This document shows positions 2,874-24,036 of a DNA stretch of 32,000 nt, piece after piece. Origin of the DNA: Anaerolineales bacterium (lineage in GTDB: Bacteria > Chloroflexota > Anaerolineae > Anaerolineales > Villigracilaceae); contig JABARH010000003.1 in assembly GCA_019187665.1 (NCBI GenBank), positions 222,982 to 254,981 of the forward strand. Direction: 5' to 3'. The first letter of the stretch is position 1; each line of letters starts with the position of its first letter. A model generated the notes under the pieces. That model was not told the DNA's origin and made no database searches. It worked only from the letters and a program-made list of their open reading frames with translations. The translations under genes and the position numbers were made by a program.

Positions 2874-4070
2874 ATGACCAAAGAAACTGAAGCCGTCATT
2901 TTATCCGCCGCGCGGACGCCGATTGGAAAATTTCAGGGCGCGTTGAGTTCCGTCCCTGCGACGCAACTTGGCGCGATCGCCGTGAGAGCCGCGGTGGAGC
3001 GGGCAGGCATCCATGCCGAAGAGATCGAAGAAGTCATCATGGGCAACGTGGTGCAGGCGGGCGAGGGTCAGGCTCCCGCGCGGCAATCGGGAATTTTGAG
3101 CGGCATCCCCGCCACGGTCAGCGCGAGCACGATCAACAAAGTCTGCGGGTCGGGGTTGAAAGCCGCGATGATGGCGAGTCAGGCTGTTCGAGCGGGCGAT
3201 GCGTCGCTCTTCGTCGCAGGCGGATTCGAATCGATGAGTCGCGCTCCATTTCTCGTCGCGGGTCGTTCGGGCGAATTAAAATTTGGAGACCAGCCACTCA
3301 CCGACGCGCTTCTCAAAGACGGCTTGTGGGATCCCTTCGAAAATTGGAGCATGGGCAACGCGGCGGAATTTATTGCGGATGAATACGAGGTGACGCGCGA
3401 GGCGATGGACAACTTTGCGCTTCGCTCGCACGGGAAGGCTGTTGAGGCGCAAGCGGCGGGCCGATTCGCGCCTGAGATCGTCCCCGTGCGAATCGAATCG
3501 CGCAAAGGCGAAATGATCGTAGACACGGACGAAGGTCCGCGAAAGGATTCGACTCTCGAGGCGTTATCCAAACTCAAGCCCGCGTTCAAGCCTGGCGGAA
3601 AAGTAACTCCTGGCAATTCGTCGCCAATGAACGACGGCGGCGCGGCGGTTGTGATCGCTTCGCGCGCGTATGCTGAGAAAAATAAATTGAAGCCGATGGC
3701 GCGCGTGGTGGGGTATGCACAAGCCGCGCTCGAACCGAAATATTTGTTCGCCGCGCCCGCTCATGCGATTCCGAAGTTGTTGAAAAAGATTGACTGGAAA
3801 CTATCCGACGTGGACTTGATCGAACTCAACGAAGCCTTCGCCGCGCAAGTGTTGGCAGATGGTTATGCTCTCGCAGATCAAGGCTGGGATTGGGACAAAG
3901 TCAACGTCAACGGTGGCGCGATCGCGTTGGGGCATCCGCTCGGCGCAAGCGGAGCGCGTGTGTTGACGACGTTGTTGTATGCTTTGAAAGATCGTGGGTT
4001 GAAGCGCGGCATTGCCTCTTTATGTTTAGGTGGAGGCGAGGCGGTGGCGATGGCGGTTGAAATCGAGTAG
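2874..4070 (+). CDS. Acetyl-CoA C-acetyltransferase (thiolase II)
   Basis: Full-length thiolase pattern: active-site Cys in NKVCGSGLKA, the NEAFAAQ motif, and C-terminal GGAIALGHPLGASGAR and CLGGGEAVAM (thiolase signatures). Confidence 0.95.
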   Translation: MTKETEAVILSAARTPIGKFQGALSSVPATQLGAIAVRAAVERAGIHAEEIEEVIMGNVVQAGEGQAPARQSGILSGIPATVSASTINKVCGSGLKAAMMASQAVRAGDASLFVAGGFESMSRAPFLVAGRSGELKFGDQPLTDALLKDGLWDPFENWSMGNAAEFIADEYEVTREAMDNFALRSHGKAVEAQAAGRFAPEIVPVRIESRKGEMIVDTDEGPRKDSTLEALSKLKPAFKPGGKVTPGNSSPMNDGGAAVVIASRAYAEKNKLKPMARVVGYAQAALEPKYLFAAPAHAIPKLLKKIDWKLSDVDLIELNEAFAAQVLADGYALADQGWDWDKVNVNGGAIALGHPLGASGARVLTTLLYALKDRGLKRGIASLCLGGGEAVAMAVEIE

Positions 4071-4123
4071 ACACGTACACAAGTAGACAGGTAAACACGT
4101 GTGTACTTGTGTACGTGTTTACC
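4067..4123. repeat. Octamer-built hairpin element abutting the thiolase stop codon
   Basis: Four direct octamers (GTAGACAC, GTACACAA, GTAGACAG, GTAAACAC) are followed by three inverted units (GTGTGTAC, TTGTGTAC, GTGTTTAC). This gives a perfect 15-bp stem (4071-4085 with 4104-4118) and a competing 11-bp stem (4090-4100 with 4113-4123). Confidence 0.85.
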
Positions 4124-4137
4124 CTCACGGAGACACA

Positions 4138-4986
4138 ATGACCATCAAACACATCTTCGTCATCGGCGCAGGGACCATGGGCAACGGCATCGCGCAGGTC
4201 GCGGCGACATCGGGGTATCAAGTCACGTGCATGGACGTTCAGTCCGCCGCGCTGGAGAAAGCCAGAGACGCGATTGCCAAGTCAACGGCGAAACTGCTCG
4301 AAAAAGGGACGATCACCGCTGAGGGCAAAGCCTCCGCCGATGCGATTCAATATGTGTCGACCATGGACACGATGAAAGAGGCGGACTTTGTCATCGAAGC
4401 CGCGACGGAAAACCCCGAACTCAAATTTAAAATTTTCAAAGACATGGATGCCAATGCCCGTACAGGCGTGATTTTGGCGAGCAACACATCTTCGATCTCG
4501 ATCACCAAAATCGCCGCGCAGACCAACCGTCCCGACAGAGTGATCGGGATGCACTTCATGAATCCCGTGCCGTTGATGAAACTGGTGGAAGTTATCAAAG
4601 GTCTCGCCACCAGCGAAGAGACGCTCGCCACAACGCTGGAACTGTGCAAGGTCATGGGTAAGGAAGCGTGGGAAGCGAACGACGCGCCAGGCTTCATCTC
4701 GAATCGCATTTTGTGCCCGATGATCAACGAAGCGATCTTCGCCCTGCAAGAAGGAGTCGGCACGAAAGAAGCGATTGACGCCGTGATGAAACTCGGCATG
4801 AATCACCCGATGGGTCCGCTCACGCTGGCGGATTTGATCGGGCTGGATGTGGTGCTGTTCATCATGGAAGTCCTGCACCGCGACCTCGGCGAAGACAAAT
4901 ACCGCCCCGCGCCTCTGCTCCGCAAGATGGTGGATGCGGGGTATTTGGGAAGGAAATCAGGGAAAGGGTTTTATTCATACTCGTAA
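4138..4986 (+). CDS. hbd: 3-hydroxybutyryl-CoA dehydrogenase (NAD-dependent 3-hydroxyacyl-CoA dehydrogenase)
   Basis: Starts at the ATG at 4138 (GGAGA RBS upstream). Has the [12 protein letters not shown] Rossmann motif and the typical NTSS, MHFMNP and GFISNR motifs. The listed 4099 start lies inside the hairpin element. Confidence 0.93.
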
Positions 4987-6550: not shown

Positions 6551-8251
6551 TCACACCAATGTCCCCGCATACCCATCCGCGCGCGGATCGCTTCCGCCGC
6601 ACAGCACGCCTGTTTTTGCGTCGCGGAGAATGACCTGCCCCCTGCCGAACAATGCGCGTTCGTAACCAGTGACCGAATACACGGGGTGTCCCATTTTTTG
6701 CAAGCCGTTGAATGTCCCCTCTGGCATTCCCTCTTCGATCGCAACGCGCCCGCCTGATTCATCCACGTCAATGCAAAAGCGCGAACGATCCAGCGCGGAC
6801 TGGGGATCTAGCCCATCATCCACCAACGCGGATAACACTTGCACGTGTCCCTGCGGTTGCATGAATCCGCCCATGACGCCGTAGGAGGCGTATAAAGATT
6901 CTTCAAAAGAATCTTTTGAACCGCGAAGCTCGCTAAGACCGCTAAGAATTTCTTGATTCTTCGCGTGCTTTGCGCTCTTCGCGGTAAGTTTTGTGACCAT
7001 GGCAGGGATAATCGTGTGATAGGGTCGCTTGCGCGGGGCGAGGGCGTTGGGATGATTCGGGTCGAGGCTGAAGTTGTGTCCGCGATTTTGAAGCGTGAAG
7101 CCCCAGCCTTTTGGGACAATGCCTGTGCCGAATCCCATGTAGTTGCTGTTGATGAACGAGCAGGCGTTGCCGAATTTGTCCACGACGCTGAGATAGACGG
7201 TGTCGGAGGAGGAGACGGGAACGCCGCGTTCGATATTGCGTATTGCGGACTGCGTGTTGATTAGTTTGCGGCGATGACTTGCATATTCTTTCGATAACAG
7301 TTCATTGATGGGGATGTTTGAAAACTTTGGGTCAGATACATACCAACTCGCATCGGCAAAAGCGAGGCGCATCGCTTCGATCATCAGGTGCATCTTTTCA
7401 ATGGAGAGAGATTCAAGTGAAGCCAGATCGAATCCTTCGAGAATATTCAACGCGATCAACGCGGTGATGCCCTGTCCATTGGGCGGACATTCGTAGACTC
7501 GATAGCCGCGATAATCCACTGAGATTGGCTCTTCCCACGTGGACGTGTGCGACGCGAGATCGTCAGCGGACAGACACCCGCCCGCCTCGTTCAACACAGC
7601 GACGATGGCTTCGGCAATTTCACCTTGATAAAACGCCGACGCCCCTTCGCGCGCGATGGTTTCAAATGTTTTTGCCAAGCCAGAATTGCGGAAGATCTCG
7701 CCCGCGTTCGGTCCGCGTCCATCAATGGTTAACTCTTGTCCGTTCGGCGCGGAGGCGAGTTGACGTTGAACGCCGCGTCCCCAAAAATAGGATGTGATCG
7801 GCGCGACGGGAAAGCCGTCGCTGGCGAGTCGAATCGCGGGCGCGAGAATCTCAGACATCGAGAGCGAGCCGTGTTTTTGAATCAGGTCGAACCAGCCCGC
7901 GCACGCGCCGGGGACAGTCACCGTGTATGGATGGAACGCGGGAATCGAAGATGCGAATCCGCTGGTCTTTAGCCGATCAAGCGTAAGGGCGGAAGGAGCG
8001 CGGCCCGATCCGTTGAGGGCGGTGACTCGTTTCGTATCCGCAGAAAAATACAGCGCGAACATGTCGCCGCCGATCCCAGTGGAGGTTGGCTCGGTCACGT
8101 TGAGCGCCGCGCCCGCCGCAACAGCCGCATCTGCCGCGTTGCCTCCTTTCGCAAGGATTTCAAGCCCCGCAGCTGTAGCGAGAGGTTGCGAGGTTGCGAC
8201 GATTCCGTTCGTTGAGTACACAGGCGAGCGATGGGATGAAAAATTCATCAT
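6551..8251 (-). CDS. ggt: Gamma-glutamyltransferase family protein (no signal peptide, YwrD-like) carrying a 22-codon repeat insertion
   Basis: I start it at the ATG at 8251 (MMNFSSHRSPVYSTNGIVATSQPLA), because the listed longer ORF would overlap the divergent MFS gene. GGT motifs are present: TSTGIGGDMFALY, the autoprocessing Thr in SSDTVYLSVVD, and GVMGGFMQPQGH. Confidence 0.9.
   Translation of the reverse strand: MMNFSSHRSPVYSTNGIVATSQPLATAAGLEILAKGGNAADAAVAAGAALNVTEPTSTGIGGDMFALYFSADTKRVTALNGSGRAPSALTLDRLKTSGFASSIPAFHPYTVTVPGACAGWFDLIQKHGSLSMSEILAPAIRLASDGFPVAPITSYFWGRGVQRQLASAPNGQELTIDGRGPNAGEIFRNSGLAKTFETIAREGASAFYQGEIAEAIVAVLNEAGGCLSADDLASHTSTWEEPISVDYRGYRVYECPPNGQGITALIALNILEGFDLASLESLSIEKMHLMIEAMRLAFADASWYVSDPKFSNIPINELLSKEYASHRRKLINTQSAIRNIERGVPVSSSDTVYLSVVDKFGNACSFINSNYMGFGTGIVPKGWGFTLQNRGHNFSLDPNHPNALAPRKRPYHTIIPAMVTKLTAKSAKHAKNQEILSGLSELRGSKDSFEESLYASYGVMGGFMQPQGHVQVLSALVDDGLDPQSALDRSRFCIDVDESGGRVAIEEGMPEGTFNGLQKMGHPVYSVTGYERALFGRGQVILRDAKTGVLCGGSDPRADGYAGTLV
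6920..6985. repeat. 66-nt hairpin element (3 x 9-mer, loop, 3 x inverted 9-mer) inserted in frame inside ggt
   Basis: The left arm is ACCGCGAAG CTCGCTAAG ACCGCTAAG (6920-6946) and the right arm is CTTCGCGTG CTTTGCGCT CTTCGCGGT (6959-6985). It spans exactly codons 423-444 of ggt (TAKSAKHAKNQEILSGLSELRG). It has the same architecture as the core of the element at 21349-21415. Confidence 0.85.
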
Positions 8252-8296
8252 GGCGATTTGAACCTTTTCTGAAAGTTTTTTCGTAGATGGACGTGA

Positions 8297-8305
8297 TGGT
8301 ATCAT
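8297..8305 (+). promoter_or_regulatory. Candidate extended -10 promoter of the MFS gene
   Basis: TGgTATCAT at 8297-8305 in the ggt/MFS divergent intergenic region. AAAGGA RBS lies before the ATG at 8331. Confidence 0.35.
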
Positions 8306-8330
8306 AGACCAACTTGCCAAAAAGGAAAAC

Positions 8331-9593
8331 ATGGAAAATTCTTCACAGAACATTCCGCAAAATTGGGCGCCGCGCTTTTTCACCATTTGGACCGGGCAGG
8401 CGTTCTCGTTGTTTGGTTCGGCTTTGGTTCAATTCGCGCTCGTGTGGTGGCTGACGAAAGAGACCGGTTCCGCCACCGTGTTGGCGACCGCCACGTTGGT
8501 GGCGCTGTTGCCTCAGATCGTTTTTGGTCCGTTCATCGGCGCGTTGGTTGACCGTTGGAACCGCCGCTTGATCATGATCGTAGCAGACGGGAGCATCGCG
8601 CTTTCAACCGCGTTCCTGTTTTATCTGTTCGCTACTGGGCAAGTTCAAGTTTGGCACATCTACGTGATCGTGATCATCCGCTCGTTTGGCACGGCGTTTC
8701 ATTCACCCGCCATGACCGCCTCCACCTCGCTGATGGTTCCCGATAAATATCTCGCACAATTATCTGGCGCGAATCAATTGCTTCAAGGTCTGGTCGGCAT
8801 TGCCGCGCCTCCGCTTGGCGCATTGTTGATCGAAGCGTTCTCGACGCAAAATGTTTTGCTCATTGATATTGCGACCGCCGCCCTTGCGATCCTGCCATTG
8901 TTATTCATCCCCGTGCCTCAACCCGTCCGCGACGCGATTCAAAAACCGTCCACGTACTGGGAAGATTTGAGGGAAGGTTTTCATTACGTTGTGCGCTGGC
9001 GCGGATTGCTCGGCTTGACCATTCTTGCGATGATCTTGAATTTTATGATCACCCCAAGTTCCGCGCTCCTGCCTCTCGTGGTTACGAAAGTTTTCAACGG
9101 CGGCGCGCAAGAACTCGGTTGGAGCGAAGCGATGTTCGGGGCCGGCATAATCGCGGGCGGCATTTTGCTCGGCATCTGGGGCGGATTCAAACGCCGCATC
9201 ATCACCTCGTTCAGCGGCATCATCGGCATCGGCGTCGGATGCGTCCTCATCGGGTTCGTGCCAGCAGACAAGTTCTACCTCCTGCTCGCCGCCAACTTCA
9301 TCATCGGTTTCACGGAAGTTTTTGCCAACGGGCCGTTGATGGCGATCCTTCAATCCACCGTCGCGCCCGATAAACAAGGACGAGTCTTTTCGCTCCTCGG
9401 CGCGGGCGCGACCGCCATGATGCCGCTCAGCCTGCTGGTCTCGGGTCCCATCGCCGATCTCCTTGGGATCCGCTTCTGGTTCATCTTCGGCGGCGCGGTC
9501 TGTGTTCTGATGACGGTCATCGGGTTCTTCATCCCCGCGATCATGAACATCGAGAACGACCGCGAAGCCGTGTTGACTCCTGTGGCTGAATAA
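8331..9593 (+). CDS. MFS transporter (DHA3/EntS-like efflux family)
   Basis: About 12 predicted TM helices. The N-terminal F-x2-W-x-GQ-x-FS-x-FGS pattern and the GALVDRWNRR loop between TM2 and TM3 are typical of MFS_3/enterobactin-exporter-like proteins. Confidence 0.85.
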   Translation: MENSSQNIPQNWAPRFFTIWTGQAFSLFGSALVQFALVWWLTKETGSATVLATATLVALLPQIVFGPFIGALVDRWNRRLIMIVADGSIALSTAFLFYLFATGQVQVWHIYVIVIIRSFGTAFHSPAMTASTSLMVPDKYLAQLSGANQLLQGLVGIAAPPLGALLIEAFSTQNVLLIDIATAALAILPLLFIPVPQPVRDAIQKPSTYWEDLREGFHYVVRWRGLLGLTILAMILNFMITPSSALLPLVVTKVFNGGAQELGWSEAMFGAGIIAGGILLGIWGGFKRRIITSFSGIIGIGVGCVLIGFVPADKFYLLLAANFIIGFTEVFANGPLMAILQSTVAPDKQGRVFSLLGAGATAMMPLSLLVSGPIADLLGIRFWFIFGGAVCVLMTVIGFFIPAIMNIENDREAVLTPVAE

Positions 9594-9877: not shown

Positions 9878-9925
9878 ACAAAAACCCCCGTTGCTGGCGC
9901 AGTTGAACTGCGTCAGCAACGGGGG
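9878..9925 (-). terminator. Strong rho-independent terminator of the cytochrome operon
   Basis: A 19-bp stem (9885-9903 with 9907-9925, one G-U) has a 3-nt loop. On the minus strand it is followed by TTTTTGT. It lies 20 nt after the cytochrome stop codon. Confidence 0.85.
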
Positions 9926-9945
9926 TTCGGCTTGATTCGGTTTCC

Positions 9946-11211
9946 TCAATCATCCCCCTCTTTGCGTTCGCCTCCCTCCTCTTTCTGTCCTGTCGAATGG
10001 CACTCCATGCAGTTTTGGAAATCTGTAACTCCTTCCTCGATATGCTTCGAGCGTATTTCGGATTCGTTGTGTTCATGACAACCATAACAGGTATAGGTTG
10101 TAAAAGCGCTTGGGTGACAAGTGGCGCATGAGACTGTGCCGCCATCGCCGTGATTCAACGGGAAGGTGTGTGGTTCATTGAACGTGGCGGGTTTCCACGC
10201 CGTGGTGGTGTGACAAGCCGCGCAGTCTGTGCCAAACAAGCCCAAATGAAAAACGGGATCGGCATGACAGGCAACGCACGCGCTGGGCGTTCCCGCAAAC
10301 TGGTCGTTGACGTGACACTGCTCGCATTCCACTTGTTGATGCGCGCCCGTCAGCGGGAAGTCGCTGCGCGAATGATCGAAGGTCGCGTCCTTCCAATTGG
10401 AGGGCGTGTGACAGGAGCCACAGTCTGCGCCAAATTGCCCGGCGTGAACGTCGTCGGCCTGGTGACAAGCCGCGCAGTCCTGCGATGCGGCTTGTAAATC
10501 CGCAATCGTTCGCGCGTTCGCGTGACAGTCGGCGCAGGCAACATCCGCGTGTTTGCCATCGAGCGGGAATACGAAAGTATTATGATCGAAATCGTTTCCG
10601 TAGGTATCCACGCCATCGTGACACGACAAACAGTCGCCGCCCCAACTTGCCGCGTGTGTGTCGGTGAAAGCCGAATCAATTTGACGATGACAAGTATCGC
10701 ACGTCTGCAAATCGAATTGCGACACATCATCGGCATGGCAATCGGAACAAGTGAAGGCTTTTCGCGCCGCAGTGAACTGGTGACCTTTCAACGAGTAACC
10801 GAGCGCTTCATGCGGAAAAGTGATTTCGTCCATCTCGGTCAGCGAAGCGTCCGCGCCGCGATGCTCGGGATGACAATTGCGGCACGTGATGGCGGCGGCA
10901 TCTTTCATCATCCGTCCGTGAAGCGAAGACAAATCTTGCAGTTGTCCCGAAAGATCGCTATGGCAATCCAGACAGCGATCCGCCATGGTGGCGCGTTCCC
11001 AGGGAGCAGTGTGACAGGTCTGGCAATCCCCGCCGGTCTCCGCATGAGACGTGACGCCGCCCAACATCTCTCCGCGTTGCGCATTCAATGGACCGGGGCT
11101 GTATAACAAACCTCCGCGAGCATACACGTATCCCACGATAAGGAACGTGGTGAGGATCGCGGCGATGATGCCGCTTCCTGATAGGCAACCCAGACGATTG
11201 GTTCGCATCAT
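9946..11211 (-). CDS. Membrane-anchored multiheme c-type cytochrome (15 CxxCH motifs)
   Basis: I counted 15 CxxCH motifs. The N-terminus is MMRTNR plus a hydrophobic anchor (IIAAILTTFLIVGYVY). It contains repeated F-x-H...G-x-H...CxxCH...CxxCH modules like c3/c7-type polymers. GGAGGA RBS at 11212-11219. Confidence 0.93.
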   Translation of the reverse strand: MMRTNRLGCLSGSGIIAAILTTFLIVGYVYARGGLLYSPGPLNAQRGEMLGGVTSHAETGGDCQTCHTAPWERATMADRCLDCHSDLSGQLQDLSSLHGRMMKDAAAITCRNCHPEHRGADASLTEMDEITFPHEALGYSLKGHQFTAARKAFTCSDCHADDVSQFDLQTCDTCHRQIDSAFTDTHAASWGGDCLSCHDGVDTYGNDFDHNTFVFPLDGKHADVACADCHANARTIADLQAASQDCAACHQADDVHAGQFGADCGSCHTPSNWKDATFDHSRSDFPLTGAHQQVECEQCHVNDQFAGTPSACVACHADPVFHLGLFGTDCAACHTTTAWKPATFNEPHTFPLNHGDGGTVSCATCHPSAFTTYTCYGCHEHNESEIRSKHIEEGVTDFQNCMECHSTGQKEEGGERKEGDD

Positions 11212-11218
11212 TCCTCCG

Positions 11219-11773
11219 CTACTTTAACAAGGTAGCGTAGTACAACGCCGCGCCGATATGGACGAACGCCGAAATGAACAACGCGATGCCGATGGGGATA
11301 TGAACGGTATGCCAGAGCGCCAAAAGACGACGCGCTTGCTTGAGAGCCTCTTGTGAGAGCGTCCCCTCAATCTCCAATCCGTCCATGGTGCGCGGGATGC
11401 GGGTGAAGACATAACGCCCGATGAATCCGCTAACGACGATAATGATAGTCAGTAAGGTTGTCGCGCCGGCGATGCCGTTGAATTTCCACGAGGTGTGAAG
11501 CAAAACCATGTACGGTCCCACGATCCCGGTAAAAATATGGAATTGAAGCCACGTAGACATCCTCCCCCACTGTACAGTGCGACTCCGTTTGCGCAGGCTG
11601 TATAACGTCTCTGTCATCATCATTAAGACAAAGCCGACGATTCCGACGCCGTGACCGAACAACTCGCCCGCCGGGGGAATCGAGCGCGTGAAAAAAACAA
11701 CCAGCGCGTAGATCCCTGTGATCAACGCCATCGCCAAAAACGCCAACCATAATTCTTTGTTGCCACGAAGCAT
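11219..11773 (-). CDS. Five-TM membrane protein with two H-x13-H pairs (putative di-heme b-type electron carrier)
   Basis: Starts at the ATG at 11773, 3 nt after a GGAGGG RBS (11777-11782). Predicted helix 3 carries H79 and H93, and helix 5 carries H158 and H172, each pair with 13 intervening residues. Confidence 0.65.
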   Translation of the reverse strand: MLRGNKELWLAFLAMALITGIYALVVFFTRSIPPAGELFGHGVGIVGFVLMMMTETLYSLRKRSRTVQWGRMSTWLQFHIFTGIVGPYMVLLHTSWKFNGIAGATTLLTIIIVVSGFIGRYVFTRIPRTMDGLEIEGTLSQEALKQARRLLALWHTVHIPIGIALFISAFVHIGAALYYATLLK

Positions 11774-11790
11774 AAACCCTCCAAAGATTC

Positions 11791-13089
11791 CTAATTCCTC
11801 AAACCCGCCCAAAACTCGACGACCACATCCCCGATGCGGGCATCTGGAGCCAATAATTTCTCGCGGATCGAGGAAATATCTATTCCTTCCGAAACGATTT
11901 TCTGGAGAGGGTACGAAAGTTTCTGGTCGCCCATCACCACCGCGCCGAACACCCGCTTTTCACCGACAAGCAAGCGGACATGATTCACGTCAAAGCCGCT
12001 CTGAGCCACCATTGCCTCCGGCAGGCTCCGCCACGTTTCGCTGTCGCCGCGCGCAATGCCGATCACGTCTTCATCGTGACCGCTCCCCACCGCGCCGATG
12101 ATCGTTGTCGTCAGACCCGCCAAACGAGTCACGTTGAACGGAGGCGCTTTGACATACGCCGTTATCCTGCCTGCCATGTTCAACCCCGCCGCATATCCTT
12201 GCTGACGAGCGGGTCCCCACAAACTATCCAACACAGACCGCCCGCTGGACGGATCGTACACCTGCGCCACATCGCCCGCCGCAAAGATATGCGGATCGTT
12301 CGTCCGCATACACTCGTCGACGAGAATCCCCCGCTCGACCTCCAGCCCAGCCTGCCTCGCCAACTCCAAGCGCGGACGAATCCCGATCGCATACGCCAGC
12401 ATGTCGCACTTGATGATCTTCCCGTCGAGCAAGCGCGCGCCGCCGACGCGATTCTTCCTCCCGATCACCTCGGTCAATTCGGCGTGATGATGCAAGGTCA
12501 CGCCTTCCACCTGAAGCCGCGCCTCGACGATCTTCGATTCGCGCTCATCCAGCACACTGCCCCAATATCGATCGCCGCGCAGTAAATAATGGACGTTCAT
12601 ACCCCGCGCGAGCAATCCTTCGGTTAACTCCAACGCGGTGATCCCGCCTCCCACCACAACGACCGTCTTGCCGCGCCGCGCATGTTTCAAAATGCGCTTC
12701 GCGTCATCCATGTGATCGAGTTTGAAAACACCCTCGAGATTTGCGCCGGGCATCTCCAGCGGCAATGCCTGCGCCCCGGTGGCGATCAACAGGCGGTCAT
12801 ACGGGATGGAAGCCTGATCCTCCAACTCCAACGCGCGCGCCTCGCGCAGAACATTCTTCACGCGCCCTTTCATATACCGAAAGTTCATCTGGCGGTAATC
12901 TTCAGCCGTACGCGGGTACAAAGCTTTGTCGTGAAGTTCCCCGGTCAAATAATAGGCAAGCCCGGGGCGCGAATAGAATCCGTGAGGGTCGTCGCCGATC
13001 ATCACGATCTCCCCAGCGGCATCCACGGAGCGGATCGCCTCAATCGCCGCGATGCCCGCCACGCCCGTGCCGACGATCGCGTACTTCAT
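11791..13089 (-). CDS. FAD-dependent pyridine-nucleotide-disulfide-family oxidoreductase (NAD(P)H-binding)
   Basis: Starts at the ATG at 13089 after an AGGAGG RBS. It has IVGTGVAGIAA (FAD fold), VVVVGGGITALE (NAD(P)H fold) and IFAAGDVA motifs. The start overlaps the ferredoxin stop (ATGA). Confidence 0.88.
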   Translation of the reverse strand: MKYAIVGTGVAGIAAIEAIRSVDAAGEIVMIGDDPHGFYSRPGLAYYLTGELHDKALYPRTAEDYRQMNFRYMKGRVKNVLREARALELEDQASIPYDRLLIATGAQALPLEMPGANLEGVFKLDHMDDAKRILKHARRGKTVVVVGGGITALELTEGLLARGMNVHYLLRGDRYWGSVLDERESKIVEARLQVEGVTLHHHAELTEVIGRKNRVGGARLLDGKIIKCDMLAYAIGIRPRLELARQAGLEVERGILVDECMRTNDPHIFAAGDVAQVYDPSSGRSVLDSLWGPARQQGYAAGLNMAGRITAYVKAPPFNVTRLAGLTTTIIGAVGSGHDEDVIGIARGDSETWRSLPEAMVAQSGFDVNHVRLLVGEKRVFGAVVMGDQKLSYPLQKIVSEGIDISSIREKLLAPDARIGDVVVEFWAGLRN

Positions 13090-13352
13090 GATTTCCTCCT
13101 GGCAAACAAATCCGTCCTCTCGAACCGCAACGCCCCGCGCGGGCAACGCGCCACACACTCGCCGCACGCCAGGCAATGACTGTGGATCACCGGCTCATTC
13201 CGCCACGCATGAGCGCGCACGTCAATTCCCACCGGGCAGTGATATGTGCAAATCCCGCACTGCACACAACGCGCGGGGTCCGGCGCCACCAGCCCCGCAG
13301 CGAGAACCGCATGCTTCTTCGCGTCATGTTGAAAGAGTCCCAAGATTGCCAT
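13086..13352 (-). CDS. 2x[4Fe-4S] ferredoxin-type protein
   Basis: CVQCGICTYHCP and CLACGECVARCP are two canonical 4Fe-4S cluster motifs. The ATG at 13352 is preferred over the listed TTG at 13415, but the start is uncertain. Confidence 0.8.
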   Translation of the reverse strand: MAILGLFQHDAKKHAVLAAGLVAPDPARCVQCGICTYHCPVGIDVRAHAWRNEPVIHSHCLACGECVARCPRGALRFERTDLFARRKS

Positions 13353-13557
13353 TGTGTTGAAAGCCGTCCGATCTGCCGATTGAATACAACTTGCATCGTT
13401 ATTATAGGCTTCCAAACAGCGACGAATGTCACGATTAAGTCATAAGCATAATGCGCTGCCACACAACGACATAGTTACCCTACACCACACTACAGGCGCT
13501 CCATTTCATGGGGTTTCTTCGCGCCCTTTACGGTGAAATGCGCTTTAACGAAATAGG

Positions 13558-13609
13558 ACTTACGCAACCATCCGTTCGGCGCGTTAGAGAACGCCAATTA
13601 TGCGTACGT
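13558..13609. repeat. Nested small hairpin element containing a 26-nt sequence repeated exactly at 31970-31995
   Basis: GCGTTAGAGAACGCCAATTATGCGTA at 13581-13606 is identical to 31970-31995. The inner stem is GCGTT/AACGC (13581-13585 with 13590-13594). The outer imperfect stem pairs ACTTACGCA (13558-13566) with TGCGTACGT (13601-13609). Confidence 0.8.
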
Positions 13610-13698
13610 TTCATTTGTATCGAACAGCGCGCCAGATACCGCCGGCTTATGATAATTGCCAAAACCCATTCCTCAATCGAGGGTAAAATATCCTACTG

Positions 13699-15804
13699 AT
13701 GCCCTTCCTCTTCCAAAAATTTCACAACTGGAAATACAGCGCGCAGACGATCCTCCTCGGCGCGGCCCTGCTCGCCTACGGACTCTTTGCCGGTCAACAG
13801 GGTTTCCACTGGGATGATTGGGGCTTCGTGTGGATGATGCGCTTCGGCGGCGCGGAACGTCTGCTGGATTATTTCTCTGTGGCGCGGCCCGTGCTGGCGC
13901 GGATGTATCTCGTCACCCTGCCCCTGCTCGGAGCGAATCCGCTCGCGTGGCAGGTCTTCGCATTGTTCTGGCGCGCCGCCTGCGCGATCGCCATGTGGTG
14001 GGCGCTTAAGCAAATCTTCCCAAAATATCCGCGAGAAATTTTCTGGATTTCCCTGCTCGCCCTCGTTTACCCCGGCTTCAGCCAACATTCCATCGCCATC
14101 GCCTACGGACATTACTCGCTGCTCTTCACCGCCTTCTGGCTCTCGCTTGGATTGATGATCGTCGCCCTGCGCGCCGAAAAACGGAAATGGATTCCCCTAT
14201 CGGCGGCGCTGATTCTTTCTGCGTGGTCGCTGTTTTCGGCGGAATACGCATTCGGATTGGAATTACTTCGCCCGGTATTTCTATGGTTTGCAATCGCCAA
14301 TGCCTCCGATACGCTCAAAACAAAAATAATCAAAACCCTCCGCGCTTACATCCCCTATCTCCTGATCCTCCTGGCTTTTATCATCTGGCGCGTCTTCATC
14401 TTCGGCTTCCAAATGTACGACGCCGAACTGTTCGACTCGAGCGCGACAGGCGCGCCCAGCGGACTGTCCGCCCTGCCGCGCATGATCGTAGACGCGTTGC
14501 TCAACGCCTCCGTCCGCGCCTGGACCGGCCTGCTCGATTTCTCCGCCTATGCCGATTTCGGCGCGCGCCTGCTCACGCTCACCTTGATCATCATCATCGG
14601 CGCATTCCTTTTCCTCGTCCACTACGATTCTCACTTATCACTTATCACTCGTCACTCATCACTTCCCGCTCCTCACTCCGCACGATCTTCCCAACCTCTA
14701 CTCCCCTTCACCCTCCTCGGCATCCTCGCCCTCCTCACCGCCGGGATTCCGTTCTACGTCGCCGGTCTCCCCATCACATTAAATTTCCCCAACGACCGCT
14801 TCACCATGTCCTTCGCGTTCGGCGCGGCAAGCCTGCTGGTCGGTCTCATCAATTTGATTCGCAAAAACGAATATCGCGCCGTCGCGTTAAGTCTGCTCGT
14901 CGCGCTCAGCATCGGCAAACAGATTCAATTCGCGCATGCCTTCCGCGAAGACTGGGAACTGCAAAAAAGTTTTTTCTGGCAACTCACCTGGCGCGCCCCG
15001 CAGATCGAGCCGGGCACTGCCCTGCTCTCCGACGATTCCGCGATTCGATTCTCCACCGACTATTCCCTCGCCGGTCCGCTCAACTGGCTCTACAACCCCG
15101 GCAATCCCAACGGCGGCGTGGACTACGCCTACTTTTTCATCGGCACGCGCCTGCATCACGAACTGCCCGACCTCAAAGAAAATCTACCCATCCAATCCAA
15201 CGTCCGCCTCTCAAGTTTCAGCGGCAACACCAGCGACATGCTCGTCTTTCAATTCCGCACGCCCGCCTGCCTGCACATCCTCGATCCAAAATATGATTCA
15301 GACATTCCCGCGCCGCCCAATTCAATTAGTGTGACGAAGGACATGCTCGCGGACGGAATCCCCGTTCTGACCGCGCGGACCTTGCAAGCCCTGCCCCTCT
15401 CCGATGTTTCCCGCATCGTGACTGACGGGACAGCGGGCGCCGCGCCTCCATCCTTTCTCTTCGGGACAGAGCCGCCGCATACATGGTGTTACTACTTCCA
15501 AAAAGCGGACCTCGCCCGTCAATCTGGCAACTGGGAACAAGTTGCAGAACTCGGCGACCAAGCCTTCGCGATTCCCTATCTGCCGGACGACGCCTCCGAA
15601 TTCCTCCCGTTCATCGAAGCCTATCTGCGCCTTGGACGAATGGACGACGCCCGCCAGTGGACGCGCAACGCCAGCAGGCAGATGCCCGTTATCGCTCCAG
15701 CCCTGTGCGCCGTGTGGCAGAGAGTCGCCGCGGATGAAATCGCCATCCCCGAATCCGCGCTGGAAAAAACGATCCGCGAATTAAAATATTGCCCGTCGCA
15801 ATAG
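13699..15804 (+). CDS. Large polytopic membrane protein, GT-C/ArnT-PMT-like glycosyltransferase fold suspected, with a C-terminal soluble TPR-like region
   Basis: More than 10 predicted TM helices. There is an acidic HWDDWGF motif in the first loop, as in GT-C enzymes. The C-terminus has helical-repeat-like sequence (GNWEQVAELGDQAF...AYLRLGRMDDARQW). The function is inferred only from this architecture. Confidence 0.6.
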   Translation: MPFLFQKFHNWKYSAQTILLGAALLAYGLFAGQQGFHWDDWGFVWMMRFGGAERLLDYFSVARPVLARMYLVTLPLLGANPLAWQVFALFWRAACAIAMWWALKQIFPKYPREIFWISLLALVYPGFSQHSIAIAYGHYSLLFTAFWLSLGLMIVALRAEKRKWIPLSAALILSAWSLFSAEYAFGLELLRPVFLWFAIANASDTLKTKIIKTLRAYIPYLLILLAFIIWRVFIFGFQMYDAELFDSSATGAPSGLSALPRMIVDALLNASVRAWTGLLDFSAYADFGARLLTLTLIIIIGAFLFLVHYDSHLSLITRHSSLPAPHSARSSQPLLPFTLLGILALLTAGIPFYVAGLPITLNFPNDRFTMSFAFGAASLLVGLINLIRKNEYRAVALSLLVALSIGKQIQFAHAFREDWELQKSFFWQLTWRAPQIEPGTALLSDDSAIRFSTDYSLAGPLNWLYNPGNPNGGVDYAYFFIGTRLHHELPDLKENLPIQSNVRLSSFSGNTSDMLVFQFRTPACLHILDPKYDSDIPAPPNSISVTKDMLADGIPVLTARTLQALPLSDVSRIVTDGTAGAAPPSFLFGTEPPHTWCYYFQKADLARQSGNWEQVAELGDQAFAIPYLPDDASEFLPFIEAYLRLGRMDDARQWTRNASRQMPVIAPALCAVWQRVAADEIAIPESALEKTIRELKYCPSQ
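14631..14679 (+). repeat. Heptamer tandem repeat inside the membrane-protein CDS
   Basis: The units are TCACTTA TCACTTA TCACTCG TCACTCA TCACTTC CCGCTCC TCACTCC, encoding SHLSLITRHSSLPAPHS between two hydrophobic segments. Confidence 0.8.
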
Positions 15805-22209: not shown

Positions 22210-23607
22210 ATGTGGCGCCAATACATCACTGTCACCGCTGTTGAAGAAGCCGTCCGCATTCTGGGCGAAAAAGGGGAACGCGCCCGCATCGTGGCCGGAG
22301 CCACCGACCTGATCCTCGAACTGGAACGCGGGGTTCGCCGCGGCGTGGACACGCTGATTGATATCACGCGCGTCCCCGAACTCGACCGCATCCGCCTGGA
22401 CGAGGCTGGGACACTCCATCTCGGTCCGCTCGTGACGCACAACAACGCAGCCGCCTCTCCCCTCCTCCGCAGCCGCGCCTTCCCCCTGGCGCGCGCCGCG
22501 TGGGAAGTGGGCGCGCCGCAGATCCGCAACCGGGCCACCATCGCGGGCAACCTGATCACCGCCTCGCCTGCCAACGACACCATCACCCCGCTCATGGCGC
22601 TCGACGCCAGCGTGACCCTGCTCTCCGCGCGCGGCGCGCGCAGCCTGCCATTGCGCGAGTTTTACACCGGCGTCCGAAAGACCGTCATGCAAGCCGATGA
22701 AATACTCGTGGATATTTCCTTCCCTGCCCTGAAAGAGACACAGCACGGGACGTTCATCAAAATGGCGCTGCGGCGCGCGCAGGCCATCTCCATCGTCAAC
22801 GCTGCGGTCATTCTGGATATACGGGCGGATACTGTCCATTCGGCTGCAATCACCCTCGGAGCGGTCGCGCCCACCATCCTTCACGCGCTCGAAGCGGAAA
22901 AATGGCTGGCGGGCAAGGACCTCAGCGAGGAGGCCATCGCCGAAGCGGCGCGACTCGCCATGCAGGCCAGCCGTCCCATAGACGATATCCGCGCCTCCGC
23001 CGCGTATCGCCGCGAGCTGGTGCGCGTCAGCGTCCTGCGCGCCCTGCAACGCCTGCGCGATGGAACAGAACGAAACGACATGCCGGAGCAGCCGATAGTG
23101 CTGGGACAAATCGCTCCAGGATTGGGAATTCAGAATTCAGAATTCCCAATGATGCCGATCGAAACCAGCGTCAACGGCAGGAAAATGACATTTGCGACCG
23201 GCCACGAAAAAACATTATTACGCCTATTACGCGAAGATGGTTTATTAACCGGCACGAAAGAGGGCTGCGCCGAGGGGGAATGCGGCGCATGCACCGTTTT
23301 CCTCGACGGCCAGGCGGTGATGGCGTGCCTCGTCCCCGCGCCGCGCGCACATGGCGCGGAGATTGTCACCGTCGAAGGACTCGCAGCGGACGGGCAATTA
23401 CATCCTGTGCAGGAAGCCTTCATCCGGCATGGCGCGGTTCAGTGCGGATACTGCACGCCGGGCTTTATCATGTCTGGCGCAAAATTGCTGGAGGAGAGGC
23501 CGCACCCCACACAGAATGAGATCCAACAGGCATTCAGCGGCAACCTATGTCGCTGCACCGGTTACTACAAAATCATCGAGGCCGTCGAATCGGCCGGCAG
23601 GAGTTGA
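22210..23607 (+). CDS. Fused FAD-binding (CoxM/XdhB-like) and [2Fe-2S] (CoxS/XdhC-small-like) subunit of a xanthine-dehydrogenase-family molybdenum hydroxylase
   Basis: The N-terminal ~290 aa show the FAD_binding_5 pattern (ARIVAGATDLILELERG, IRNRATIAGNL, ASAAYRREL). The C-terminal 150 aa carry both 2Fe-2S motifs (CAEGECGACTV and QCGYCTPG...CRCTGY). One uninterrupted frame joins them through a ~25-aa linker. Confidence 0.9.
   Translation: MWRQYITVTAVEEAVRILGEKGERARIVAGATDLILELERGVRRGVDTLIDITRVPELDRIRLDEAGTLHLGPLVTHNNAAASPLLRSRAFPLARAAWEVGAPQIRNRATIAGNLITASPANDTITPLMALDASVTLLSARGARSLPLREFYTGVRKTVMQADEILVDISFPALKETQHGTFIKMALRRAQAISIVNAAVILDIRADTVHSAAITLGAVAPTILHALEAEKWLAGKDLSEEAIAEAARLAMQASRPIDDIRASAAYRRELVRVSVLRALQRLRDGTERNDMPEQPIVLGQIAPGLGIQNSEFPMMPIETSVNGRKMTFATGHEKTLLRLLREDGLLTGTKEGCAEGECGACTVFLDGQAVMACLVPAPRAHGAEIVTVEGLAADGQLHPVQEAFIRHGAVQCGYCTPGFIMSGAKLLEERPHPTQNEIQQAFSGNLCRCTGYYKIIEAVESAGRS
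23122..23149. repeat. 28-nt near-palindrome with three tandem GAATTC-containing heptamers in the interdomain linker
   Basis: TTGGGAATTCAGAATTCAGAATTCCCAA has three units (GAATTCA GAATTCA GAATTCC) flanked by the 10-bp perfect inverted repeat TTGGGAATTC/GAATTCCCAA. An in-frame ATGATG begins within its last base (23149-23154). Confidence 0.9.
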
Positions 23608-23609
23608 CC

Positions 23610-24032
23610 ATGTCAAAATACGGCAATGTGCGAACGGCCACCCCGCCCAAAAGCCGCCGCGAACCACATCCCGTCTGGCGGGGAATCGGTTGTTTTATGA
23701 TGCTTTTTCTCCCCGTGATCTCGTATGCCATCAGCATGTTAACGGTGGACGAGGCCATCCGGCAGGGTATCCGCCTGCCAGAGGGACTGGTCAGGAATCC
23801 GGTGATGCCGGAGATCCTGTTCATGGTACCGGGATTGGTGGACCTGTTGTATTGGATCCAGGCGCAGACTAATTTGTACGCGTATCTGCTGGTGACTTTC
23901 TTTATCCTCATTTTTCTCGGCGGCATCTTCAGCTTCATTTACGCGTTGATCTATCGCGTTGTCGGCCCCCCCGCCTACTCCGAGTTCGACGCTCCGCCGC
24001 CGAAGGTTAAAGTTAAAAAATATCGAAGATAA
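23610..24032 (+). CDS. Small two-TM membrane protein embedded in the molybdenum hydroxylase operon
   Basis: The ATG at 23610 follows GGCAGGAG and lies 2 nt after the upstream stop. There are two hydrophobic helices (GIGCFMMLFLPVISYAISMLTV and AYLLVTFFILIFLGGIFSFIYALIY) and a basic tail (KVKVKKYRR). The next gene starts 4 nt after its stop. Confidence 0.7.
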   Translation: MSKYGNVRTATPPKSRREPHPVWRGIGCFMMLFLPVISYAISMLTVDEAIRQGIRLPEGLVRNPVMPEILFMVPGLVDLLYWIQAQTNLYAYLLVTFFILIFLGGIFSFIYALIYRVVGPPAYSEFDAPPPKVKVKKYRR

Positions 24033-24036
24033 CCGC

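Follow-up and report, generated by a model that had tools for sequence, protein, structure and literature searches.

A four-gene operon of Anaerolineales bacteria as a candidate transmembrane electron-export complex ending in a modular multiheme cytochrome c

Introduction

How do electrons pass from the cytoplasm of Anaerolineae to their multiheme cytochromes? The question is raised by four adjacent genes in a metagenome-assembled genome of an Anaerolineales bacterium (GenBank assembly GCA_019187665.1, contig JABARH010000003.1, positions 222,982 to 254,981), a stretch of 32,000 nucleotides that we call the window. They encode a small ferredoxin, a flavoprotein, a membrane protein with two pairs of histidines and a cytochrome c with 15 heme motifs. 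Anaerolineae and their relatives rank with the most abundant bacteria of wastewater sludge, anaerobic digesters and sediments, abound in activated sludge and aquifers as well, and carry many multiheme cytochromes. We know of no described route from the cytoplasm to a multiheme cytochrome in these bacteria. Here we analyze the four genes, their relatives in other genomes and the predicted properties of their products. On balance we think it probable, from comparative sequence analysis, that the four genes encode one self-contained transmembrane electron-export complex.

Results

The four genes lie on the minus strand. The ferredoxin gene (13086-13352, 88 amino acids) is followed by the gene for a flavin adenine dinucleotide (FAD)- and NAD(P)H-binding flavoprotein of the ferredoxin/rubredoxin-reductase type (11791-13089, 432 amino acids), and the products of both are predicted to be cytoplasmic. 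Next come the gene for the five-helix membrane protein, our putative bis-heme b wire (11219-11773, 184 amino acids), and the gene for the multiheme cytochrome c (9946-11211, 421 amino acids), which has an N-terminal anchor and is predicted to face outward. The ATG of the flavoprotein gene overlaps the TGA of the ferredoxin gene (ATGA), and gaps of 17 nucleotides (nt) and 7 nt separate the flavoprotein gene from the membrane protein gene and the latter from the cytochrome gene. Ahead of the three internal starts stand AGGAGG, GGAGGG and GGAGGA. An intrinsic terminator (about 9880-9928, minus strand) lies 18 nt past the cytochrome stop codon; its hairpin of 15+6 bp has one internal mismatch, is followed by a U-run and folds at -39.6 kcal/mol (z = -6.1), with none of 200 shuffled sequences folding equally well. 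A simple consensus terminator scan did not pick up this hairpin; RNA folding did. A first-pass annotation, made from the letters of the window, had described four tightly packed minus-strand genes with a 4-nt ATGA overlap and gaps of 17 and 7 nt, a strong ribosome-binding site at every internal start and a terminator with a 19-bp stem. The open reading frames (ORFs) are exactly where it placed them, the junctions and ribosome-binding sites are as it described, and the terminator is indeed a strong one; the stem is in fact 15+6 bp with one mismatch, so the figure of 19 bp was essentially right.

Does this arrangement recur in other genomes? In a scan of one genome per species, 281 genomes had a close relative of the membrane protein, and we examined the best 80 loci, all of them from Anaerolineales or from bins of that kind. 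The order ferredoxin, flavoprotein, b protein, cytochrome is kept in all 80 wherever the contig reaches. A cytochrome match was found in 80 of the 80 loci, a flavoprotein match in 77 and a ferredoxin match in 72; the missing flavoproteins and ferredoxins are all at contig ends, and the cytochrome is cut by a contig end in three loci. In nine loci the cytochrome that matches best is separated from the b gene by a second, longer one and lies 2-3 kb downstream; in one (L051) it lies upstream, and a 20-heme cytochrome directly follows the b gene. The flanking genes vary among the 80 loci: a gamma-glutamyltranspeptidase and a major facilitator superfamily (MFS) transporter recur in some, and the other neighbors checked do not. 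Compared with their counterparts in the window, the b proteins of these loci are 76-92% identical, the flavoproteins 62-90%, the ferredoxins 59-93% and the cytochromes 43-92%; by this measure the putative heme b protein is the most constrained of the four.

Beyond these loci, the same components appear in other orders. In Ardenticatenaceae and other Anaerolineae (Chloroflexota), the order is b protein, cytochrome, ferredoxin, flavoprotein and a second cytochrome, and the b and cytochrome genes overlap by 1 nt in L089 and by 4 nt in L090 and L091. The donor genes in these loci are true orthologues (ferredoxin 49% and flavoprotein 38-40% identity). In L090 the ferredoxin orthologue, at about 8300-8590, is present and uncalled in the public gene set. 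A high-GC soil contig carries flavoprotein, b protein and a 12-heme cytochrome in the order of the window, and a metagenome scan with a narrower alignment returned two loci.

The most distant branch of b proteins comes from Fidelibacterota/Marinimicrobia, other bacteria of the Fibrobacterota-Chlorobiota-Bacteroidota (FCB) group and Thermoanaerobaculia. One of its members, P0250, is about 35% identical to the window membrane protein over the whole alignment, and BLAST gave about 39-43% identity over the aligned part of b proteins of this branch. In seven of the eight loci of this branch the b gene is directly followed by a gene for a fusion of 415-440 amino acids that joins a two-cluster ferredoxin domain to a flavoprotein; in the eighth (L084) the contig ends within the cytochrome gene that comes after the b gene, before any ferredoxin or flavoprotein gene. 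One to four multiheme cytochromes lie near the FCB-type clusters. The ferredoxin part of the fusion is 30-39% identical to the window ferredoxin. Its flavoprotein part is of the YpdA/thioredoxin-reductase type (TIGR04018, 158 bits; Pyr_redox_3) and has no BLAST match to the window flavoprotein; as judged from these sequences, the FCB flavoprotein is a non-orthologous replacement that keeps the same logic. Two of the fusion proteins start with a hydrophobic helix followed by Lys/Arg. A different flavoprotein family in the same module is hard to explain unless the ferredoxin and flavoprotein feed the b-type protein. Taken together, the kept order in Anaerolineales, the shuffled orders in other Chloroflexota and the FCB fusion with another flavoprotein argue strongly for one functional unit.

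Some FCB-type clusters contain further genes. An extra protein of 285-288 amino acids with a ferredoxin-NADP+ reductase (FNR) fold lies between the fusion and the cytochromes in three loci (L085 9182-10048, L086 9182-10048 and L093 10192-11049); it matches NAD_binding_1, is weakly like flavohemoprotein reductase, NqrF and PaaE, and is of the same fold class as the NOX dehydrogenase domain. Two heme-free proteins, of 526 amino acids in L081 (10490-12070) and 539 amino acids in L092 (14198-15817), are homologous to each other (31.5% identity over 511 amino acids), have signal peptides, match no Pfam family and have the C-terminal sequences ...GYRL and ...GIRF. One possibility is that they form barrels in the outer membrane of diderm hosts and so lengthen the conduit, as in a porin-cytochrome complex. 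In the flanks of L081, L083, L085/L086, L092, L093 and L094, heavy-metal resistance-nodulation-division efflux genes (CusB/CzcB, OEP, ACR_tran), CusF/SCO1-like genes, OmpR-type two-component systems or a MerR regulator turn up repeatedly. These gene contents hint at metal-responsive control or a metal-related role.

Could the membrane protein carry electrons? An identical 184-amino-acid protein is on record as "hypothetical protein HFACDABA_00393". The protein has His at positions 41, 79, 93, 155, 158 and 172, four of which form the pairs H79-x13-H93 and H158-x13-H172. Its family is large, with 4,686 clusters at 90% identity (E <= 1e-3) and 2,594 clusters at 50% identity. We aligned 52 members with 30-62% identity to the window protein. 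All of these homologues have H79, H93, H158 and H172; H41 and H155 are not invariant. R61, K62, G86, G100, G116 and G119 show no variation either, and the conserved Gly residues sit in helices neighboring the His helices. An AlphaFold2 model run with the family alignment has a mean predicted local distance difference test (pLDDT) score of 93.7 and five helices (residues 6-29, 38-63, 72-93, 100-124 and 141-181), with the first His pair on helix 3 and the second on helix 5. Across the alignment, the numbers of Lys plus Arg average 2.1 in the N-terminus, 4.9 in loop 2-3 and 14 in loop 4-5, and 0.8 in loop 1-2, 0.8 in loop 3-4 and 0.7 in the C-terminus; the N-terminus is therefore predicted to be inside and the C-terminus outside. 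Transmembrane helices 3 and 5 (TM3 and TM5) then both run from inside to outside, with H79/H158 about 7 and H93/H172 about 21 residues from the inner helix end. By helix geometry and comparison with known bis-heme bundles, this would fit one b heme near each membrane face, about 21 Å apart, with H79/H158 as putative ligands of the inner heme and H93/H172 as putative ligands of the outer heme.

Profile searches place this protein near, and outside, the known families. Ni_hydr_CYTB, DUF4405, Ferric_reduct and DUF4079 form one Pfam clan of two-heme membrane cytochromes. The window protein has only a sub-threshold Pfam match, to Ni_hydr_CYTB (22.5 bits versus a cut-off of 30.1); it does not match Ferric_reduct (PF01794) at E <= 0.1, DUF4405 (PF14358), which has six helices rather than five, or any NCBIfam model. 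When the 52 relatives were scanned singly, 15 matched Ni_hydr_CYTB (E < 0.01, best E 2.3e-6), three DUF4405 (best E 7.5e-4), one Ferric_reduct (E 0.002) and one DUF4079. Among close homologues, a minority are tagged in advance as PF01292 (Ni_hydr_CYTB, the prokaryotic cytochrome b561 family of FdnI, HyaC and CybB), and the L085 homologue matches DUF4405 at E 0.0044. The Ni_hydr_CYTB signal suggests a distant relation, at the level of the clan only. A profile search of solved structures matched only coiled coils, because long family members carry a loop insertion. The best heme protein found by Foldseek was eukaryotic cytochrome b561 (4o6y/4o7g; TM-score 0.40-0.44, E 6-8). Comparison of the family by hhalign with Escherichia coli CybB, FdnI and MsrQ and with the transmembrane region of human NOX2 gave probabilities below 1% (0.2% for NOX2); the reference sequences were approximate, which makes this result a lead rather than a test.

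The first-pass annotation had described the two H-x13-H pairs on helices 3 and 5 of a five-helix protein, and these positions agree with the model. It had also named ways in which its proposal could fail: His that vary among homologues, His pairs at mismatched membrane depths, or a match to a non-heme family. All four His are invariant, their predicted depths match (+7 and +21 residues from the inner ends of TM3 and TM5), and no non-heme family was matched, the only matches being sub-threshold ones to di-heme b families.

Most members of the family are longer than the window protein, at about 260-290 amino acids. They have a charged, coiled-coil-like insertion in the cytoplasmic loop between TM4 and TM5, which makes this loop about 85 residues longer than that of the window protein (residues ~125-150). 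One member (P0138, 392 amino acids) has an extra cytoplasmic N-terminal extension with a CxxC pair. Another (P0169, 548 amino acids) looks at first like a b protein joined to a 10-heme cytochrome and was rejected as such: it is a frameshift read-through chimera without TM5, and for this reason it is unusable as Rosetta-stone evidence.

The cytochrome has exactly 15 CxxCH motifs and one N-terminal hydrophobic segment. It matches Cytochrome_C7 (66.9 bits), Cytochrom_c3_2 (60.9 bits) and Cytochrom_CIII (59.2 bits) above the Pfam cut-offs, and by these matches it is a member of the c3/c7 class of multiheme cytochromes c. Two NCBIfam models gave lesser matches, HmcA (E 1.4e-4, 20.6 bits versus a cut-off of 400) and nanowire_3heme (E 0.028), and among solved structures no significant sequence relative of the cytochrome was found. 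The protein has 31 His in all, 16 besides those of the heme motifs, and is built as a five-fold internal repeat of triheme c7-like modules with three conserved extra His per module. Therefore all 15 hemes can be bis-His ligated, and no catalytic heme is apparent. A catalytic multiheme reductase of the nitrite or hydroxylamine type was considered and rejected: there is no CxxCK motif and no unpaired heme, and the His suffice for bis-His ligation at 15 hemes.

Relatives of this cytochrome vary in length. Complete cytochromes that follow the b gene in the 80 loci have 12-38 hemes, and second cytochromes have up to 47. Whatever the total number of hemes, the first ~125 residues are highly conserved in 94 such cytochromes; this stretch comprises a short cytoplasmic "R-L-G-C", the membrane helix, "SPGxLN", "GGVxSHAE" and the first three heme motifs. 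We infer that the conserved N-terminus may serve to dock the cytochrome on the b protein, and that the rest may be an extension whose length can be adjusted. Hemes seem to be gained or lost by whole triheme modules. The "R-L-G-C" motif (window 11185-11205, cytochrome residues 3-9) is on the cytoplasmic side of the helix and at the same position in the 94 paralogues, and all 25 aligned orthologues have its Cys9; because the motif precedes the hydrophobic stretch, it is no lipobox. In many relatives two multiheme cytochromes follow the b gene, for example one of ~730 amino acids with 30 hemes and one of ~460 amino acids with 17 hemes, and counts reach 36-47 (L009, L010, L014, L016, L021, L022, L029, L030, L036, L040, L043, L046, L051, L053 and L077). 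The paired cytochromes all carry the same conserved N-terminal anchor and docking region.

The other two proteins would form the electron donor. The 88-amino-acid protein has CxxCxxCxxxCP motifs at residues 29 and 60 (CVQCGICTYHCP and CLACGECVARCP), scores above the Pfam cut-offs for Fer4_7, Fer4 and Fer4_9 and has eight Cys that are all kept in 73 orthologues; on motif and family evidence it is a 2x[4Fe-4S] bacterial-type ferredoxin. A scan for hydrophobic segments found none in the ferredoxin and none in the flavoprotein. The flavoprotein matches Pfam Pyr_redox_2 at 196 bits. It reaches no NCBIfam equivalog cut-off; its best models there are PadH (183.6 bits), the NirB N-terminal domain and HcaD, all with scores far under the cut-offs. 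Its closest solved relatives are rubredoxin reductase (3fg2), then AorC (8c0z_E), which its depositors describe as resembling ferredoxin:NADH oxidoreductases and as possibly a subunit of an aldehyde oxidoreductase, and the ferredoxin reductases of aromatic dioxygenases. YSRPGLAY, GGGITALEL, VHYLLRGDRYW and AAGDVAQ are conserved among 76 orthologues, as are the dinucleotide folds GTGVAG and GGGITA. No conserved Cys pair is present in these 76 sequences; the protein is therefore a ferredoxin-reductase-type enzyme by its sequence, and a disulfide reductase is ruled out. We place it in the ferredoxin/rubredoxin reductase group of the glutathione-reductase fold, a membership that follows from its matches and motifs. 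The GxGxxA fingerprint and the conserved, Arg-rich LLRGDR after the second Rossmann strand are a hint of NADPH as substrate.

The remaining features of the window concern the surroundings of the operon. The intergenic region upstream of the ferredoxin gene (13353-13698, minus strand), which presumably holds the promoter, is common with a divergent gene and contains no ORF of the cluster. One sigma-70-like site lies at 13676-13649, and the number of such sites in 13353-13698 is not above shuffle expectation. The divergent ORF (13699-15804, plus strand, 701 amino acids) has many hydrophobic stretches and no Pfam match, and it does not recur beside the cluster in relatives. At 6551-9593 lies the gamma-glutamyltranspeptidase, whose true start is probably further downstream because its longest ORF overlaps the start of the convergently numbered MFS transporter by 56 nt. 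Unrelated neighbors are a thiolase and 3-hydroxyacyl-CoA dehydrogenase pair (2874-4986, plus strand) and a molybdoenzyme of the xanthine-dehydrogenase/CO-dehydrogenase type (22210-26226, plus strand) with a fused FAD and 2Fe-2S subunit and a Mo subunit.

Discussion

How would the four proteins work together? We propose that the flavoprotein oxidizes NAD(P)H in the cytoplasm and hands the electrons singly to the two [4Fe-4S] clusters of the ferredoxin, which would dock where the membrane protein exposes positive charge to the cytoplasm (invariant R61 and K62; R120). The membrane protein would hold two stacked b hemes between TM3 and TM5, the inner one bound by H79/H158 and the outer one by H93/H172. 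The outer heme would then reduce the first hemes of the cytochrome, which would be docked by its conserved N-terminal helix and first ~125 residues, and five bis-His triheme modules would lead the electrons from the membrane to an extracellular acceptor. Candidate acceptors are Fe(III)/Mn(IV) minerals, humics, electrodes, a partner cell and possibly O2. Negative charge would leave the cell along this path, so the membrane potential would help the reaction and would not be built by it. Export is the likely direction because inward flow to an acceptor at -320 mV would be opposed by the membrane potential. The pathway thus likely dissipates rather than conserves energy, which would suit NAD(P)+ regeneration in fermenters. 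In fermentative Anaerolineae the likely benefit would be NAD(P)+ regeneration, redox balancing and more substrate-level phosphorylation. In keeping with this, one host of the cluster is a metagenome-assembled genome labelled Brevefilum fermentans (L077). The report on the published B. fermentans genome describes a fermentative organism without electron-transport-chain complexes and with a single membrane polyheme cytochrome, and it discusses direct interspecies electron transfer (DIET) to Methanosaeta (PMC5481317).

Much of this scheme was outlined in the first-pass annotation, which had drawn the path from a cytoplasmic donor through FAD and iron-sulfur centers to a di-heme b protein and an outward multiheme c. 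Our results support this path, and no refuting test that we ran went against it. The features it had picked out in the other proteins were all recovered: the two CxxCxxCxxxCP motifs of the 88-amino-acid protein, the GTGVAG and GGGITA folds and AAGD motif of the 432-amino-acid flavoprotein, and the 15 CxxCH motifs of an N-terminally anchored protein, for which it had suggested the comparison with c3/c7 families that yielded the three Pfam matches. Synteny, which it had asked about, holds in the 80 best Anaerolineales loci wherever the contig allows, and other orders occur in other Chloroflexota and in the FCB group. It had also raised the concern that the ferredoxin and flavoprotein might belong to a known enzyme with the cytochrome merely adjacent. 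This is not borne out: in FCB bacteria the pair is fused and directly adjoins the b-type gene, and the fusion is sometimes membrane-anchored and uses a different flavoprotein family.

It is possible to go further, although we do so tentatively and give the following somewhat less than even chances. The module may be an NAD(P)H:extracellular-acceptor oxidoreductase that needs no quinone and in function amounts to a bacterial "NADPH oxidase" mounted on a heme nanowire, and may serve as the main electron-dump route of fermentative, respiration-poor Anaerolineae. Its wire length would be tuned by triheme modules, and a parallel FCB version would use another flavoprotein and likely an outer-membrane barrel. 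Acceptors in this case would be minerals, humics, electrodes and methanogen partners, the last by DIET.

Several points weigh against these proposals. The membrane protein reaches no curated family threshold in Pfam or NCBIfam, and neither sequence nor profile searches found a relative of it among solved structures. A Foldseek search of its model against the PDB gave no match at E <= 0.001, though Foldseek is weak on all-helical membrane bundles. Heme binding thus rests on motifs and context, because there is no solved sequence relative and no significant Foldseek neighbor. The single-sequence model of the cytochrome is unusable (pLDDT 40). The family that gives the best, sub-threshold match, Ni_hydr_CYTB, consists of proteins that are usually quinone-reactive, such as FdnI and HyaC. 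If no quinone loop is involved, exporting electrons from NAD(P)H runs down the membrane potential, a high price for a fermenter, and L077 is tied to the published B. fermentans genome by its species label only.

The quinone question leads to the main rival, which we consider unlikely but worth serious attention. The b protein would have a menaquinone site, and the donor pair would reduce menaquinone via the inner heme. The result would be an NAD(P)H:quinone reductase with the design of complex II or formate dehydrogenase-N, whose menaquinol would be re-oxidized towards the cytochrome as in CbcL, ImcH and CymA, forming a redox loop and not a straight wire. Such a loop would spare the membrane potential. 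Ni_hydr_CYTB is also the only recurrent Pfam signal, in 15 of the 52 members with a best E of 2.3e-6; its characterized members FdnI and HyaC are quinone-reactive, and the known inner-membrane entries to multiheme chains in Geobacter and Shewanella are all quinol oxidases. However, we could identify no quinone-site motif in the b protein, both membrane faces already have dedicated redox partners that are conserved across phyla, and the species label of the host L077 is that of an organism reported without electron-transport-chain complexes. The FdnI/Ni_hydr_CYTB pattern is a four-helix bundle with a quinone site and heme ligands spread over three helices (1+1+2), whereas the His here are arranged 2+2 on two helices, and the hhalign comparison with the approximate reference sequences was not significant. 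An improbable alternative keeps the same wire and gives it another purpose, as an extracytoplasmic metal reductase for detoxification or assimilation, acting in Fe(III) uptake or on Cu(II), Cr(VI) or other toxic metals, with no bulk sink. The FCB loci that repeatedly adjoin CusB/CzcB/OEP/ACR_tran, CusF/SCO1, OmpR-type two-component or MerR genes speak for such a role, as does the action of the analogous di-heme FoxB, FezC and ferric reductases on iron. But a wire of 15-47 hemes, often in two or three cytochromes, is far longer than a soluble periplasmic substrate would require, the neighbors in the window and in most Anaerolineales loci are unrelated (gamma-glutamyltranspeptidase, MFS), and all hemes appear bis-His, so that no catalytic heme is evident.

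The remaining two explanations fare worse. Electrons could flow inward, from Fe(II), a cathode or a partner cell to ferredoxin or NAD(P)+; multiheme conduits are often reversible in vitro, and Tmc, Hmc and Dsr of sulfate reducers run inwards via cytochrome c, cytochrome b and cytoplasmic iron-sulfur proteins. By standard potentials, uptake to an acceptor at -320 mV or lower would be opposed by the membrane potential and would need a very low-potential external donor, and none of the loci seen has a hydrogenase or formate dehydrogenase linked to the cluster, so we regard this direction as very improbable. Least credible of all, and close to refuted, is the idea of no common function, in which chance has placed a soluble NAD(P)H:ferredoxin reductase pair beside an unrelated membrane protein and cytochrome. 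The ferredoxin and flavoprotein do come from very broad families with many unrelated roles, but the genes have overlapping or near-overlapping junctions and a single common terminator, their synteny is without exception in 80 species, and the components turn up again in three further gene orders, in fused form and, in other phyla, with a flavoprotein that is not orthologous.

If the export complex is the right reading, how does it relate to systems already described? The first-pass annotation had called it "NOX-like". The label fits as a mechanistic and topological analogy (His pairs on TM3 and TM5, N-terminus inside); it does not extend to the family, as Ferric_reduct is unmatched and no significant Foldseek neighbor was found. 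Like NOX/FRE/STEAP and MsrQ with Fre, the module would pass electrons from a cytoplasmic NAD(P)H flavoprotein to two b hemes stacked across the membrane. In NOX and ferric reductases the two His of each pair on TM3 and TM5 are spaced by about 13 residues (x12-13 in those proteins, x13 here), and MsrQ with its soluble flavin reductase Fre is likewise "split". However, NOX and ferric reductases have six helices, whereas the protein here has five and its C-terminus is predicted to be outside. The NOX donor is an FNR-fold domain, and here we find a glutathione-reductase-fold Pyr_redox_2 flavoprotein and a 2x[4Fe-4S] ferredoxin; the acceptors of NOX/FRE/MsrQ are O2, Fe(III) and MsrP, and here the acceptor would be a multiheme cytochrome. 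A further comparison is with FoxB (PepSY_TM), MsrQ-like proteins, DUF4405 and FezC, whose partners are flavinylated proteins, siderophores and ferrosomes and whose cytoplasmic donors are mostly unknown. The family described here, which no curated model covers, stands apart from FoxB, DUF4405 and FezC, although a few members match DUF4405 weakly, and its donor module and acceptor cytochrome are encoded beside the b gene. According to two reports, these proteins have four central conserved His and are proposed or shown to pass electrons to extracytosolic acceptors (PMC11334425; 10.1101/2021.01.28.428567). DUF4405 and FezC, relatives in the wider di-heme class, have been shown to bind heme b (PMC11334425), a point in favor of the proposed export complex.

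A resemblance of architecture also links the module to complexes of anaerobic respiration. Tmc, Hmc and DsrMKJOP of sulfate reducers comprise an outer multiheme cytochrome c, a membrane di-heme b protein and a cytoplasmic iron-sulfur protein, and this combination, which links outer and cytoplasmic redox pools, resembles that of the module. Unlike the module, these complexes have NarI/HdrE-type b proteins, HdrD-type CCG proteins and no NAD(P)H flavoprotein, and they are thought to work mainly inward; none of our four proteins matched a CCG or NarI family in Pfam or NCBIfam. CbcL, CbcBA and ImcH of Geobacter and CymA of Shewanella are, like the module, inner-membrane entries to an extracellular multiheme chain, and CbcL combines a Ni_hydr_CYTB-type b domain with c hemes. 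Their donor is menaquinol and they have no dedicated cytoplasmic dehydrogenase, whereas here the ferredoxin and flavoprotein pair is a constant partner. Flavin-based extracellular electron transfer in Listeria (Ndh2-demethylmenaquinone-EetAB-PplA) and Rnf-MmcA of Methanosarcina also lead from NADH or ferredoxin to an extracellular acceptor for redox balancing, but the former uses a quinone derivative and flavinylated PplA and the latter an ion pump, and their families and cofactors are wholly unlike those of the module. AorABC (8c0z) and the phenylglyoxylate dehydrogenase PadEFGHI, like the donor pair, couple NAD(H) to a 4Fe-4S chain via an FAD subunit and a ferredoxin; there this unit serves a soluble catalytic subunit, while here it is linked to a membrane cytochrome and its equivalog scores fall under the cut-offs. 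The dodecaheme nanowire GSU1996 of Geobacter shares with the cytochrome here the repeated triheme c7-like modules in variable number; unlike it, the cytochrome here has a membrane anchor and a conserved docking module.

What, then, is new? The kind of device is already known, both as transmembrane di-heme b conduits (NOX, ferric reductases, MsrQ/Fre, FoxB, DUF4405, FezC) and as the c-b-iron-sulfur complexes Tmc, Hmc and Dsr. The module is predicted to work like these conduits, and the profile evidence does not place it in the NOX, MsrQ, FoxB, DUF4405 or Tmc/Hmc families. New, as far as sequence comparison can tell, are the family of the b protein, the constant, dedicated donor of ferredoxin and NAD(P)H flavoprotein, and the modular multiheme acceptor. 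We found no description of this gene combination in the literature, the coverage of which leaves out most subscription journals, so that absence is not proof; the first-pass annotation, too, had not recognized the combination as a described complex.

With its four small genes the operon is a complete candidate route, and it points to a cytoplasmic donor, a part still missing for most di-heme transmembrane cytochromes of bacteria, FoxB and DUF4405 among them. If our reading is true, it would add a quinone-independent class of extracellular electron transfer and give a function to a large unannotated family of membrane proteins, with about 2,600 clusters at 50% identity. The cluster could then also be used as a compact cassette to engineer electron export driven by NAD(P)H, and as a marker with which genome surveys could look for electroactivity and DIET potential in Chloroflexota and FCB bacteria.

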